Positions 6,675 to 28,723 of a DNA stretch of 64,000 bases are shown one piece after another. The notes under the pieces were generated by a model. That model did no database searches. It saw only the letters and a list, made by a program, of their open reading frames with translations, and was not told where the DNA came from. The stretch lies in contig NW_026250416.1 in NCBI RefSeq assembly GCF_024521635.1, positions 558,001 to 622,000 on the forward strand, written 5' to 3'. The stretch's first letter is position 1, and every line of letters starts with the position of its first letter. The stretch comes from Tricharina praecox (Eukaryota). A program made the position numbers and the translations under genes.

Positions 6675-9212
6675 TCATTCGAACCTAGCCGTGACCACGC
6701 CGCAGACGGTATTATCGAGCACCAGCTCGAAATGCATCACCTCGTCGACGAGCGAAAGCCTTAGTTCGTACTCGACACGGTAGTACCGCTCGCCCATGCT
6801 ATTCGTCCGCACCGGGAACTTTTCGGTCGGGATACTTGACAGATCCGAGCGCAGCGAGACGAGTCTTCGGATGGCTGTGCGTGCACTGTGTCAGCGACTT
6901 CATCCCCCGGGATATATACGATGCGTGCGAAAGTAATCCTATGTAGCATACCTTCCACGTTCTTCCACTGGTAGTCCGGCGCGTTGTCGAGGTCGCAAAG
7001 CACCAGCTCGTCGTGGAACGTCATGTACGGCGCCATTCCCCGGATTGCGGGAACGGGAACGGTGCGGTAGAATGGCAGCGACACGAACACTGTGTTTCCG
7101 AGAACCATATTCTGGACGGCGCTATCAGCACAATTGAAAGAGCCTGTTGAAAATCTTAAGTTGCTACACACCTTCTCAATGTACCAGTTGAGATGTCCAT
7201 CTACCATGTACATCTCATCCGAGCTGTCCCAGTACTTGTGGTCCTCCAGACCGTTGCCGGCGTAGTAAGGGCTGCAGGACACACATCCATAATACCGTCG
7301 TGCTCGCCGTTCCTTGACGATTGAGCCGTCGAGACCTCGCAGAAGTGCACCGCGAGCCTGTGAAACTTGTCAAACAGATGCCATATATATGGGGGAGATA
7401 CTCGGTTCTTACGATGGCACTCCGTCTGAATAGTCGGCACGTTAGTTTCAGGACCAGGTGCGACGAGAGAATCTAGACTTACGCGTTCATTGGCTGGAGG
7501 ACCTGAAGGATCTTATCTCCCTGTCCATACCGCGCGCCTTGAAGTCGCTTTAGGAGGTATTCCGAGGACCCGAATCCACCGACGAGAAGAATTGCCTGCG
7601 AATGTGAGTGCTTGTACGCGGTGTTCTGAACGGTATCCGCACCTTGACGGCCTCCCCCTTCCTCTCTACATCCCTGACCTGGTCCTTCACCAGCGTAACG
7701 ATGCGGTCGACAACCGGATCGAAGATTGTCCTCACATCTTCTCTATCGATATTTGACCGACGTTAGGCGACTTCTCCAAGGAAGGGAACGAAATTGGGTG
7801 TTTACTAACTCTTCCATAGTGTGGAAACTCTCTTCGATTCTCTTCGCCCTGTTGTCCGGAACACCTGGAAGATTGACCTCCAGTTCTGTCGAACTGTTTC
7901 CGAATCTGAACTTGACCTTTCAAGGAATCAGCACGCCGTAAAAGCCGCCCATGCTGTCTGTTTTGTCTCACCCTCTCCTCCCATGTTCGCATCATCGCGC
8001 TTTTCGATCGCGGCTTCATCGCATCGATAACTCTGTTACCGACAACACCTCTAATGTACCGTTCGAACCCTTCATCCAAGAAGACGGAGCTGTTGAGTGG
8101 ACATCAGGATTGTATTGACGCGGAGGGGAGGCATCAGGGATCACTCACCCGCACATACCACCCGTGCCGCTCACGCACTCGTCCAGTCGTAATGGGTTCA
8201 GATCTTTGATTCGGTAAGATATCAAGTCTCTGACATGACACAAACAGGTCAGCTCAGGTCCTAGGTAGCACTCGAGTCGTACACTAGGACTCACACTGTT
8301 CCACCACCAGCATCACAGATAATGAAGACATCTCCACGCTAGCAGGAGTCAGCTAATCTACAGACCGGAGGAGAGGGGGTGACATCGGACATACATTGAG
8401 GTTATTTGGCTGGATAGCCTTGAGGGTATAAGACGCCGCGCTCTCCGGCTCAGATACCAGATGGAAATCGACGCGATGCGCCCCAAAGCCCGCATCCTCC
8501 GCCGCCTTTATCATATGGCTCTTTGCCGTATCTGTCCAGATTGCCGGCACCGTCAAGATATACTCGACCTTCGACCTGCGCACCCACTGCACCTCGTACG
8601 TGCGCTCCATGCTGGCTATTGTAATTTCGCGGACGGATCTCAAGAAGTCTGCGACCACCGTGACCGGCTGCATGTGAAGATCCTCGAGCTGCAACGCCGT
8701 CTTCCTCTCGGGCGTCTCCATGGGCGCCGTCGCATCGGCTACCACAGCCATCAACGAGAGCCCACCGACCAAGGCCTCCAGTCCCGCATTGCGATACGAG
8801 GAGCGCGGCTGAATCGCAGGCGGCCGCTCATTACGCACCGACCTCGACGCCCCACTCTGGTTCTGCAGCAGGAGCTTGAACCATTTGAGGGGCTCGCCGC
8901 CCCGGCGGCTGTTGGCAACCTCGTAGCCCCAGCGCATCGCGCGTGTGGTGGGATCGTACGCCACTTCGGACGGCACTTGGTCCGCCGAGGAGTGCCCCGG
9001 ACTGCCGTTCGGCCATGTCTGCACCAGCTTCACCTCCTCCGGACTCGCGGAATGGGCGAACGCTACCGACGTAAAGGTCGTGCCGAAGTCGAGGCCTGGA
9101 AGGAAAAGTCAGTAACGTGTTTCGATTTCCCCGCTTCGGCTGCATGAGGAGGGAGGGAAGAGGGGTGCTTGCCTACGACGAAGCGACTCTGCGTATCCCC
9201 GGATGCCACCAT
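6675..9212 (-). CDS. Atypical Hsp70-family / actin-like ATPase (HSPA12-like fungal clade); multi-exon, first intron GC-AG at 9096-9172
   Basis: Spliced product contains VVGLDFGTT, LTVPAIW, SEPESAA, ICDAGGGTVDLISY, CGSVFLD and LVGGFGSSEYL (Hsp70 nucleotide-binding motifs). The C-terminus is not a canonical DnaK substrate-binding domain and has no EEVD. Confidence 0.88.
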
Positions 9213-9457
9213 TGTCTCGCTGTCACCAACTGTCGATAGTCTTGTCTTTGTGAGCTTGTCGCGGCGCGCAGTAATGGATATCGTAGCGGAATATGGCAAT
9301 ATGGTAAGAAATGGGGAGCAAACAAGCTTCGTAGGTAGATGGGGGATGATAAGTGGGGGAGTTTAAGGGTATCTGCTAACGAAGCAAGCAAGGGAATGGC
9401 TGTGCAACGGGAGCTGTTAGCCCTGCAACCAGGCCGGGTTTCGAGGACAGCCAACAC

Positions 9458-9458
<1 letters not shown>

Positions 9459-9515
<57 letters not shown>
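9459..9515. repeat. (CAA)n microsatellite, about 19 units
   Basis: Perfect CAA run in the intergenic region between the divergent Hsp70-like and coiled-coil genes. Confidence 0.95.
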
Positions 9516-10328
9516 GAACAACAGGCAGCAGGAATGTGACAGGACGAAGTAGCTGCAGGAAGAGCGACAAGTAGCTATTGGCAGGCAGGCGGTCCACCAA
9601 GGCTATGGCGAAAAGCGGGGAGGGGAACGTTACTCAAGGGCGAGAGTATAGTAGTGATATGTACCTATCTGATATTATCCGTTGTGTGCGTGGCGGGAGC
9701 GAGTGGAGGCGCAGGATGCGCACTCGCTACCTGCAGCCAGCCAATGGTTGCGATGGACATCCCTCACAACTGCGGGGATGGGAATCCGCACACCACCCGA
9801 GACGACTCCATGGACTGACTGCCTGGCTCCACCAGAAGGCTGTCGATTTCTATGTAGCTGCAGAGCTTTGTCGTATTCGCCTTGTCGCTCAGTCCCCATT
9901 CGATCTCCCCCGATGGCACGCAGGAGAAACCCTCTTTCCTCCAACCAAATAGCACTGCATATATACTCATCGAACAAGTGGGTGGGTGGCCGGGTGCGAG
10001 GGTGTAGAGTAAGTTCAGACCCCGCATCCTACAGCATTCCTTATGTACTCTACATGCATCTCGATCGCTTCCCCTCATAGTACCTTCGCCTTCCCTCTTC
10101 GCCCAACCCTCCCTCCTGTCCCCCATCGAGGTCGAGGTCAGAACCACCAACATCAACACCTTACTCCCCGTGCCGGCTCTCGTTCATAAAGGCCCCCCCG
10201 CATAGCTCCTTAATCCTCGCACATACCCACTTCTCCTGAAACAACAGTGTAACGACAGCGGAAACGGAGACGGAGACGCTCAAATCCACCAACTATACAA
10301 TCTCGCAATCCACAGATAATCGTTGAGG

Positions 10329-12438
10329 ATGGGGACGAGCGATCGGCCACTTCCTGGCGTTTGGGGTGCGCCAGATTATGTGAGTAGATACATGTCTTGC
10401 GGCTAGGGACGGAGGAGGAGGAGGCAGCGGCGGCGGAGGTGCTAAGCGGATCGCAGAACAGCCGAAGTAGTACCTACCGTGGCCCCAGTGCTGCAAAGGA
10501 AGTACTACGGAGTCGTATGGAACGCCAACAACAGATTCAAAATTCTCGACATGATGAACGCCTACTTGAGGAACGCCTACTTGAGGAACGCCAGGCTCGT
10601 CTTGATCAACGAGCACGTGCAGAGGCAGCACGTGTAGAGGCAGCACGTGTAGAAACAGAACAGATAGAGGCAGCATTTGCAGAATCTGCACGTGAACAGC
10701 GGGAGCTAGAAGAGCGGGAGCGGGCCCTTCAGAGATCGAGCATCATATCGCACAACGAACCACCTCCAGACCTCGTGCAATTATCGTCCGACGCCATTAA
10801 GATGGACACTACGCCAGACCCCGGTTTTGGGGCCATCGGTATGCATCCAGTCGACAAGAAATTCGACGAGACGCGGTCCGATAAGCTGCAGCCAGAGGAT
10901 GGCATCCGAAGTCAGTCCGTTCACGACAAGAGAGCCGAGGGTGTGCCGGTCCACAACGAGTTCCACGACCCTGGCGAGTACGCCCCGCGGCAAGATAGGG
11001 ACGATGACAGAGAGTGGCAAGTTGCAAAGGGTTATAGGGATAGGAAGAGAACGTCACAATCGAAATCCAGGGAGAAGTCCGGAGGGGGGGCGCATCCGGG
11101 CAAATCGCTCGAGAGGCCTATTGAAAGACCATCCGGGGGAATCATAAATACTGCACTTGCCAAAATACATAGAATGACTATGAGCCCCGAGCAAGAGCGC
11201 GACGATTGGAGGAGGAAATATGAGGAACTGGACCGAAATTACGGCCAGATGGAAGATTATTACAACCAACAGAAGGATAAAGCCGACGACCTTAAAGCGA
11301 AACTCAGGTCAGAGAAAGATCATTCGCACCTGTTGCGGGAAGAGTGCGATGTCATCAGCGGTGTTAGAGACGAGTTCAAAAACAGGTGTCACCATAACCA
11401 GCGAGCCTACGAAGACGCAGAAAGACGCGCACACAATCTCCAGAAAGATCTTTTCACGAAGACTGATGAATTCCTCAAAGAAAGGGATCACTTGAAGACC
11501 CAGATCGACGAGTTGTACACATCTCACATCAGATCAGTAAACACCGTTGGCACGGGCCTGGATCCCATCTCGGATGATGCAATTGGCAAGAGGTTCACAG
11601 ATCTGTCCGACGAGGTGGGCGTCTGCTCCCTTATGAATAACAAACTTCACCGACTAATCCAATGTAGATCTATTTATGGTGTCGACAAACTTTCAGGGGA
11701 AAGCCAGATATTATGAAACTGGCTGAACTCGATCCTTTCGTGCGTGAAAAGATGTATAGACTACTAGGATCCAGGCTCCTCGACACAGACACAATAAGCT
11801 ACTCCCGCCTTATTGAGACGATTACTTGGGGATATATCGAATCGGCGATTTTCTCCGTATGGTTTCCTAGGATGGTTCCTGATTATCTCGAGACTATAGG
11901 CACCCTTCAGGAGTGGATTACAGCCGGTGGTACGTAAAGTTGTTAAGTTCCTATATTACCCCCCTTATTAACGAGATTCCCAACAGACAAATCGCTCCAC
12001 AAAGAGCGAAAGGAATTTTGGCGGGCCTACACATGTTCATTGCTCTTCCAAAACAACACCGTTGCGGCGAGTCTCCAAGATGTCGATCACTTCATGGAAG
12101 CTTTGTCGAGTCTCTACGGATCCGTCCAGCGGGACAAGATAGGCCTGTCCGAATCAAAGGCCGGCGCGCTCCAGCAGCGTCTGCGGAAGGCAATGGTGTT
12201 GGCCGCAGAGCTGAAGTGCCAGCGCGGTGCCTACGAGCTCGACGACAACATCATGATTGGCGATCCGTACGACGAGACTCGTATGGACGATGTCGGATTC
12301 ACCGAGGACACGTGTGAGACTCCCGTCGTCTCCTGTATCTTGTCGAAGGGCTGGGTGCGCAGGCCGTTCGCTGGGGCGGAGAGAGTCGACTCGCGGGTTT
12401 ACAAGGCGAGGGTTTTGGTCGAGGAGGCAAGGAAGTGA
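10329..12438 (+). CDS. Hypothetical coiled-coil protein with a GrpE-head-like C-terminal motif; introns 10380-10456, 11615-11667, 11930-11986
   Basis: All three GT-AG introns keep the frame from MGTSDRPLPG through E/R/K-rich helical segments, FWRAYT and AMVLAAELKCQR to IGDPYDETRMDDV...VVSCILSKGW...RVYKARVLV. Confidence 0.8.
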
Positions 12439-27067: not shown

Positions 27068-28723
27068 TCTTCCTCTTCTTCTTTCTTTCTTTCTTGAACG
27101 TTTTTTTTCTTTTCGTTGTTGTGTGATGATGCGCCGGACGGAAAAAAGTAACACCGACAAAGTATGAAATCTCGAAACCTCGCGCACGGTCTCCTCTGTC
27201 ACGACAACGACGACGACGACGACGGAATTCGAAGGGAAGGAAAAGTCGTGGAACACGCAAGAATGAAGAGAGAAGGGAGAAGAAGAGAGAAGACAGAAAA
27301 GAAAAGGAAGAAGAAGAGAAAGGCAGATCCGTCGCTCTTTAAACGGTCCTGATCCCAAGGTAAGGGTACGGTAGGTCGGTAGAGTACTTGGTAGGTAGTC
27401 GCAATCTCGTCTCGATAGGGTCCGCGCGAAGGAAATACAATCTTATGGTTATTTATTTGTTTCAGCTGTGCTGTGCTGTGCGTTGTGCGTGGCCGCAGCA
27501 GGCAGACGGACGGGCCGTAGTGTGCACGGACGGAGAGACACGGTTCGGATCCGGAGTTCTGGATGGGGAATAGCGAGACCGGGCTTGGAGGCTACGACAA
27601 CGAACCACGACGACGACACGGTGCGGCGCGGGTATATTTGTGCTGCTGTGCAGAGCCCCGCGCGGATAGTGCGTCGGCAGAGTGGGGTGTAGGTGAGACA
27701 AAGAATCGAGGCAGATGCCGGTATGTAGTGATTATGGAGGAGGAGATGTGTGATCGATGCGACGGATGGGATGGGATGGAATGGGATTTGGTTTATAGGA
27801 TTGATTGATGGCTGATGGTGAGAAGCGGAGTGAAGTCAAGTTGGATAAGTAAGGAGGGAAGAAGAGAAGAGAAGAAGAAGAAGAAGAAGGAGGAGGAGGA
27901 GCAAGTGTAGTAATAGCAATTGGAAGCAGCAGCAGCAGCAGCAGCAGCTCTAACTGACGGCGTGTGCAACGACGCAGCAGAGAAAAGAGTCCAGGGGTCG
28001 GCTGACATTCCGCTCAGCTATGACGTTTTGCACTCATTGCGTGTTTTCTCGCATCTCATAGGCGGAAACACCAGCAACATCGAAAGCGAAGGGGGGGAAA
28101 CGGCCGCATCACGCATATTCCCGAGAGCGTGGATCGAATCTTCACGAAGGAAAAGGAATTCTGGACCTTCTGTCGGCCTGTCTCGCGATCGATTGAAAGC
28201 GAACGAGCCAATTGAACCACATGCGAGCCACACAAAAGTCCGCAGTGAACATAATATCGCCCATTTATTCATTTACTATTACCAATAAAAACAAAAATCC
28301 ATCCCTACTCTCCCCGCATTGCGGTGCTGAAAGTCCCTGTTAAATGCACACGACTGGAAAAAAAAAGCAAACCACATTCCCCCAAATCACCCCACATCAC
28401 CCATATAGTCAGTCAATGCAATTGTCCAGTCCACCCGGTTTCTCGTGGTTGTCTTCGTCATCATCAGTCCCCCAAGCCATACCCAGCCATAGTTACCCCA
28501 GTCATAATTGCCCTAGCCATACCCCAGCCATACACACACAGACAGCCCGCCAGATGCACCACCAAACCCGCCAGACATGTAAATAAATCAAAAAAACTCC
28601 GTACAATGCAAACACACAAATGCAACCTCCCCTACACCTCCTCCTCCTCCTCTTCGCCAAAAATTTAGTCACTCACGCTCGCCACCGCTGCGATGTAGTG
28701 CTATTCCAATTCCCAATGCACTC

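Follow-up and report, generated by a model that had tools for sequence, protein, structure and literature searches.

Two genes stand head to head in a stretch of 64,000 nucleotides (nt) of Tricharina praecox DNA (RefSeq assembly GCF_024521635.1, contig NW_026250416.1, positions 558,001 to 622,000 of the forward strand), which we call the window and in which all coordinates are counted unless another locus is named. Gene A, on the minus strand (6675..9212), has 12 exons and encodes an Hsp70-like ATPase of the HSPA12 type of 620 amino acids (aa), whilst gene B, on the plus strand (10329..12438), has four exons and encodes a coiled-coil protein of 640 aa with a predicted GrpE-like tail. An original prediction for this locus proposed that a divergent GrpE-like protein and an atypical Hsp70 form a two-gene module here. 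The analysis confirms the arrangement and partly supports the interpretation placed upon it.

Gene models and the shared 5′ region

Two sequencing runs (X1 and X2), which come from two studies and whose type is unrecorded and guessed to be RNA, gave contigs that bridge all 14 predicted introns exon to exon, 11 in gene A and three in gene B, each of them in both runs. The introns of this eukaryotic region are short. Assembled mRNA would behave in the same way, and the gene models are therefore supported. The contigs, which hold no information on expression levels, suggest that both genes are transcribed.

Gene A begins at the ATG at 9212 and ends with a stop codon at 6675-6677. Exons 1 to 6 lie at 9212-9173, 9095-8395, 8338-8295, 8229-8149, 8089-7972 and 7916-7810, and exons 7 to 12 at 7742-7643, 7595-7483, 7425-7413, 7357-7172, 7111-6952 and 6874-6675, all on the minus strand. 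The first intron (9096..9172, 77 nt) has GC-AG ends and keeps the reading frame from ...FVV into GLDFGTT; the contigs of both runs skip 77 nt at this point, with a placement that is free by 4 nt. One exon (7413..7425) is a micro-exon of 13 nt, and in the contigs of both runs 13 letters stand between 7357 and 7483. Gene callers easily miss both the micro-exon and the GC-AG intron, and both are borne out by the spliced contigs.

Gene B runs on the plus strand from the ATG at 10329 to a stop codon at 12436-12438, with exons at 10329-10379, 10457-11614, 11668-11929 and 11987-12438. The short first exon and the 77-nt GT..AG intron that follows it (10380-10456) were revealed by the spliced contigs, and a start at the ATG at 10517 was rejected since these contigs show the exon upstream of it. 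The protein ends in ...IGDPYDETRMDDVGFTEDTCETPVVSCILSKGWVRRPFAGAERVDSRVYKARVLVEEARK, and the C-terminus that had been quoted for it agrees exactly with the translation of the last exon. As gene B starts at 10329, the two start codons are 1116 bp apart, in line with the divergent spacing of about 1.1 kb first noted. The shared 5′ region between them (9213..10328) holds near its middle a microsatellite, (CAA)n with about 24 units (9452-9523). Contigs from the gene A side reach 9449, and those from the gene B side reach 9532 in run X1 or 10109 in run X2; because the X1 contigs from both sides stop at the (CAA)n array, the two genes may leave only a very short gap untranscribed in that run.

Linkage and co-inheritance of the pair

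Relatives of the gene B tail were sought in metagenome contigs and gave 16 loci, of which 10 are distinct at 95% nucleotide identity. An Hsp70-like gene lies upstream and on the opposite strand in 15 of the 16, and thereby in all 10 distinct loci, one of which is counted through a cut piece of the Hsp70-like gene only; for the sixteenth, with only 276 bases upstream, no judgement can be made. As all 10 distinct related loci show it, the head-to-head arrangement is not a matter of chance. Eight of the distinct loci are distant, and in a tblastx comparison these have nothing in common with the window's first 24 kb except the two genes. The pair is also seen in annotated genomes. Its locus tags follow one another in Rhizina undulata (RUND412_001156/001157) and in three strains of Orbilia oligospora, TWF569_010652/010653 being an Orbilia pair, and in Wilcoxina, Trichophaea, Sphaerosporella, Ascodesmis and Pyronema the two genes are on contigs of equal size, which we take to be the same contig.

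The divergence matrices of the two proteins are correlated, with a Mantel r of 0.75 that none of 5000 permutations reached. This test used nine loci and the window, L115 being left out as only a 229-residue piece of gene A is present there. Linked genes diverge together in any case, and the parallel divergence is therefore a sign of long co-inheritance, not of contact between the products. Taken with the retention of the pair in every related locus that could be tested, within surroundings that are otherwise unrelated, it bears out the two-gene module of the original prediction. There is strong support for reading the pair as a two-gene unit that filamentous ascomycetes have conserved and inherited together.

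Beside the pair, several metagenome loci have one more Hsp70-like gene, more distantly related at 35-42% identity (L114, 2501-4970; L115, 4755-6715; L116, 9130-11090; L120, 2-2196; L121, up to 15541). In two others (L119, 636-1601; L123, 549-1583) a second gene of the tail family lies past the Hsp70-like gene, which places one ATPase gene between two partner-type genes. A cluster look-up also put in one 90% cluster two kinds of protein from Orbilia and Arthrobotrys (P0131, P0275-P0288), those with the tail domain, about 1780 aa long, and Hsp70-like ones of about 600 aa. P0131 and P0275 are without similarity by blastp despite this common cluster, which a clustering artefact or a bridging gene model may explain.

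The two proteins and their relatives

The gene A protein starts with MVASGDTQSRFVVGLDFGTT, and three motifs of the Hsp70/actin-fold ATPases can be read in its translation: FVVGLDFGTT, ICDAGGGTVD and LLVGGFGSSEYL. Full-length homologues score 38.7-45.7 bits against the Pfam HSP70 model (PF00012), for which the cut-off is 20.6, and among those that pass is P0293, 83% identical to the window over gene A exon 2; this exon, the largest gene A exon in the window, gives only an E value of 0.088 by itself. Among PDB entries, a profile of 48 family members matches the nucleotide-binding domains of DnaK and Hsc70 with values of 7e-15 to 5e-11; the best match is the DnaK nucleotide-binding domain 1dkg_D (7e-15). 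The catalytic lysine and glutamate and the DxGGGT and GG motifs are all kept in the family, with K96, E243, D270, GGGT at 272-275 and GG at 418-419 invariant or nearly so in the 48 sequences. With a nucleotide-binding domain above threshold and the phosphate-1, phosphate-2 and adenosine motifs all present, gene A, judged by its sequence, is an Hsp70-superfamily ATPase with a complete nucleotide-binding domain and a non-canonical C-terminal part of about 200 aa. The Pfam match spans only profile positions 107-351 of 599, and the PDB matches cover positions 13-410 of 579 and leave the last 170 or so unmatched; a canonical substrate-binding β-sandwich with its helical lid was not found in gene A, as the Pfam match stops at 351 of 599 and the PDB matches at about 410 of 579. 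It is thus correct to describe gene A as an atypical Hsp70 whose ATPase motifs are intact and whose C-terminus is non-canonical.

In a feature search of the ESM Atlas the clusters nearest to gene A are ascomycete ‘Hsp70-like protein’ clusters (0.98), and the chordate HSPA12A.1 cluster follows at 0.97 (rank 21). The label ‘HSPA12-like’, for which this Atlas search is the sole basis, is reasonable. NCBIfam returned only HscA/DnaK rows for gene A, far below threshold. Like animal HSPA12A/B, gene A has intact motifs in its Hsp70 nucleotide-binding domain and a C-terminus that departs from the canonical one, and its branch tends to expand into many paralogues; unlike them, the fungal gene A proteins are labelled PF27033 (DUF8340) in precomputed annotations. 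A 2026 review calls the function of HspA12 unknown and its mechanism untested, and states that no cofactor is known (PMC13580251).

The exon products of gene B tile three pezizomycete homologues end to end, and the conserved part is the last 270 or so residues. The variable, charged N-terminal region (10517..11167, plus strand) does not align among homologues; two arrays of 15-nt tandem repeats within it (10552-10694) encode repeated ERLLE and AARVE units (ER/A-rich). Ahead of the conserved domain is a charged, helical, coiled-coil-like stretch (11168..11524, plus strand). The ‘long coiled coils’ that had been described for gene B were checked only in part: the exon-2 product has charged stretches with almost no proline, its residues 218-336 give sub-threshold matches to coiled-coil-type Pfam families (E 0.001-0.009), and in a structural model of the homologue P0007 the equivalent stretch is a 32-residue helix that aligns with the long helix of GrpE. 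A crude heptad script passed no window in gene B and is uninformative, because its thresholds were arbitrary.

The conserved C-terminal domain (11525..12435, plus strand, about 270 aa, with two introns inside) is predicted to be a helical bundle followed by a six-stranded β head. No Pfam family covers it, whether in the window exon products (E<=1) or in 18 homologues (E<=0.1), and NCBIfam has no match for the gene B protein. Searched exhaustively with the family profile, 1.84 billion representatives gave 194 relatives at E<=1e-3, of which 93 pass E<=1e-10 and 30 pass E<=1e-30; many of the relatives are exon-sized fragments. The family is present in Pezizomycetes (Wilcoxina, Trichophaea, Sphaerosporella, Ascodesmis, Rhizina and Pyronema) and in Orbiliomycetes (Orbilia and Arthrobotrys), and more distantly in Leotiomycetes.

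AlphaFold2, supplied with the family alignment, modelled the last exon of gene B (149 aa) with a predicted local distance difference test score (pLDDT) of 94.8 and the 294-aa Pyronema homologue (P0007) with a pLDDT of 93.1. Both models show a helical bundle and then a β head of six strands, which in the exon-4 product (residues 77-149; 12217..12435, plus strand) are at 81-85, 99-101, 112-119, 121-125, 135-138 and 140-146 and take in the motifs quoted in the original prediction. When the window model was compared with the PDB by Foldseek, GrpE chains filled nine of the ten top rows, at E values of only 0.056-0.46, and nothing was found at E<=1e-3. Residues 116-195 of GrpE chain 1dkg_B align with residues 53-147 of the model, and for each of two models of the gene B family GrpE comes first among 48,161 chains. 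Of the 50 matches listed for the window model in that comparison, three, all GrpE, extend past model residue 132, and the other rows match helices only.

Profile comparison points the same way. An alignment of 88 gene B family members was set against one of 31 GrpEs, namely that of E. coli and 30 others, 29-62% identical to it, that were taken from diverse Pseudomonadota genomes (other GrpE collections, being enterobacterial only and 86-100% identical, were not used as a diverse set). The hhalign score was 28.9, with a local P of 4.2e-4 and a probability of 34%, over 105 collinear columns that place family positions 31-145 on GrpE 87-193, or 12079..12423 (plus strand) in the window. This register agrees with the structural alignment and with the match first made by eye. 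Reversed GrpE scored 18.0, 100 column shuffles had a mean of 11.3 and a maximum of 17.8, and 100 shuffles of eight-column blocks a mean of 13.5 and a maximum of 21.2, so none of the 200 shuffles reached the observed score. A second family alignment gave a P of 0.0046, the head alone 0.003 (49 columns, E. coli 144-193) and the helices alone 0.041, against 0.16 and 0.27 for unrelated controls; the comparison with the single E. coli GrpE returned only a 25-column coiled-coil match (P 0.11). Together these results lend moderate support to a GrpE-like predicted fold for the tail, and the conserved domain of gene B is probably a very distant relative of GrpE.

A possible exchange factor and its alternatives

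The closest known system is that of GrpE, Mge1 and GRPEL1 with DnaK or mitochondrial Hsp70 (PF01025; PDB 1DKG, 3A6M, 4ANI, 8GB3 and 9BLS). Gene B shares with GrpE the predicted order of elements, a long helix, a helical bundle and a C-terminal six-stranded β head; it aligns collinearly to E. coli GrpE 87-193 with matching core positions, and it is genetically coupled to an Hsp70-type ATPase. It differs in its length (640 aa against about 200 for GrpE), in its long variable N-terminus and extra helical half-domain of about 120 aa, and in its neighbour, which is an HSPA12-type protein lacking the canonical substrate-binding domain and not one of the DnaK type. To our knowledge, eukaryotic GrpE-type factors are limited to mitochondria and plastids; unlike them, gene B has no obvious presequence, as far as can be told from the sequence alone. 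The cytosolic exchange factors of eukaryotic Hsp70s, Hsp110/Sse1, the BAG domain proteins and HspBP1/Fes1, release ADP from Hsp70-type nucleotide-binding domains. Their role is the same as that proposed, by analogy, for gene B, whilst their folds are different, and none of them was among the structural matches listed for gene B.

On the GrpE analogy, the gene B protein would dimerise through its stalk, and its bundle and head would dock on the nucleotide-binding domain of gene A, as GrpE does on DnaK. Docking may open that domain and speed the release of ADP, or set the ATPase cycle in some other way, and the variable N-terminus of gene B may give location or choice of client. Binding, dimerisation and nucleotide exchange are what we infer from this likeness. 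As a whole, then, the pair may consist of a co-inherited HSPA12-type ATPase and a protein built on the GrpE plan that acts as its exchange factor. This cofactor reading, drawn by analogy, is the most economical one, and we would give it a probability of about 0.4. Among the matches listed in the literature on GrpE, Mieap and HSPA12 we found no publication on this pair.

Several results weigh against it. No sequence method puts gene B in GrpE: the Pfam threshold for PF01025 is not reached, this family giving no row for the window exon products (E<=1) or for 18 homologues (E<=0.1), and it is touched by only two of 88 family members, with a best E value of 0.013. A PDB sequence search with the family profile returned no GrpE at E<=10, the only match being aspartokinase (E 0.35), and tests of hidden Markov models against sequences were weak in both directions, with best E values of 0.0096 and 0.0013 against tiny sets, which are not significant. 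The extra helical half of the gene B domain, about 120 aa, is without an equivalent in GrpE. Close relatives of gene A were found in none of 401 Pseudomonadota genomes, a search of one phylum at a strict threshold (E<=1e-25) with no positive control. Linked genes, moreover, would show parallel divergence even if their products never met, and the shared 5′ region (9213-10328) holds no three-unit heat-shock element with at most one mismatch. The pattern used for this element, GAANNTTCNNGAA with up to one mismatch, occurs 14 times in the window, where 13.4 occurrences are expected; the only exact three-unit match in the window, at 28136-28148, is far from the pair.

The gene B protein could instead be a scaffold or adaptor of the kind represented by Mieap and by GIL1, IRKI and COST1 (DUF641), organising or recruiting the neighbouring ATPase or being remodelled by it as a client, in which case the likeness to GrpE would reflect an old shared fold put to a different use. 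Gene B resembles Mieap/SPATA18 (PF16026) and the GIL1/IRKI/COST1 proteins (PF24994 and PF04859, DUF641) in having a coiled coil and a conserved C-terminal domain of α and β elements, and the named Atlas clusters nearest to P0007 are MIEAP (0.81 in language-model features) and GIL1_IRKI_C/DUF641 (0.80), plant DUF641 models aligning at a template modelling (TM) score of 0.56-0.57 over 208-220 residues. A side remark in the original prediction that named these families fits with this result, which, as Atlas scores below 0.9 are leads only, is a lead and nothing firmer. DUF641 is also weakly touched by two of 88 gene B family members (E 0.39), yet no Pfam model of these families, PF16026, PF24994 or PF04859, matched the window products of gene B or its homologues at threshold. 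The extra helical half and an invariant CQR motif of gene B, which have no counterpart in GrpE, would suit a scaffold. Basidiomycetes have a cluster of ‘G domain-containing’ proteins, 631 aa long and with PF01926 in 73% of them, that aligns with the tail domain at a TM score of 0.66 and may be a natural GTPase fusion. This cluster would also suit a scaffold, since the same fold there goes with a G domain.

The partners known for these families differ from the neighbour of gene B. Mieap is reported to be associated with cardiolipin condensates (PMC10845071). The plant DUF641 protein COST1 is reported to stimulate the GTPase RHD3, and acts on a GTPase and not on an Hsp70; its C-terminal domain has been modelled beside the RHD3 GTPase domain, and the available portion of that paper does not mention ‘GrpE’ (PMC13189119). 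Among the matches listed in the literature on GrpE, Mieap and COST1, as far as their accessible text goes, no publication links the Mieap or GIL1-type families to GrpE or Hsp70. The neighbour conserved beside gene B, by contrast, is an Hsp70-type ATPase, the sole enzyme class known as a target of GrpE-type folds. A scaffold role is somewhat unlikely in our view, and it overlaps with that of an exchange factor, because COST1 too regulates the cycle of a nucleoside triphosphatase (NTPase).

The pair might also be a fast-duplicating cassette for stress or conflict, of a non-self or defence-like kind, with the ATPase as effector or sensor and the gene B protein as a variable specificity or regulatory subunit, the analogy with chaperones being incidental. 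Nine of 43 Hsp70-like matches are from Wilcoxina mikolae and six from Trichophaea hybrida, and extra copies of either gene are found in some of the metagenome loci; on these grounds the two-gene unit duplicates. Such a cassette would account for these paralogues, for ten distinct pair loci with unrelated flanks in one metagenome set and for an N-terminus of gene B that is not conserved, and it would recall the HSPA12 genes of bivalves, which are described in a review as hugely expanded and of unknown function (PMC13580251). The window, however, has a single copy of each gene, Pfam shows in neither protein a domain typical of the NOD-like receptor (NLR) or heterokaryon-incompatibility (het) systems of fungi, and expansion is compatible with a cofactor relation as well; we consider a conflict cassette quite improbable. 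Still less probable is a bidirectional promoter and nothing else, with products that do not interact and a GrpE likeness that is a chance meeting of a helical hairpin and a small β sheet, given that the pair is the sole conserved thing between the window and the eight distant loci and persists into Orbiliomycetes, that GrpE ranks first of 48,161 chains for two models and that no shuffle in 200 equalled the hhalign score.

If gene B is an exchange factor for gene A, it would be the first cofactor for the orphan HSPA12-type branch of Hsp70s, and a GrpE-type factor would be paired with an Hsp70 that is not of the DnaK type. A wider claim, which we regard as rather doubtful, is that gene B stands for a GrpE-derived family, so far unrecognised, whose members are exchange factors or regulators dedicated to HSPA12-type Hsp70s, with Mieap and GIL1/IRKI/COST1 as relatives that share an NTPase-regulating, GrpE-like head. 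The NTPase regulated by such a head would then be the Hsp70-like one for ascomycetes, for basidiomycetes a G domain joined to the head by fusion, and for plants the GTPase RHD3, and the pair may help to explain the C-terminal domains of Mieap and of the plant DUF641 proteins. HSPA12-type Hsp70s range from fungi to humans and reach tens of copies in some lineages. A linked and conserved partner with a GrpE-like domain offers for them a concrete and cheaply testable hypothesis, namely that the gene B protein would bind the nucleotide-binding domain of gene A and alter its cycle.

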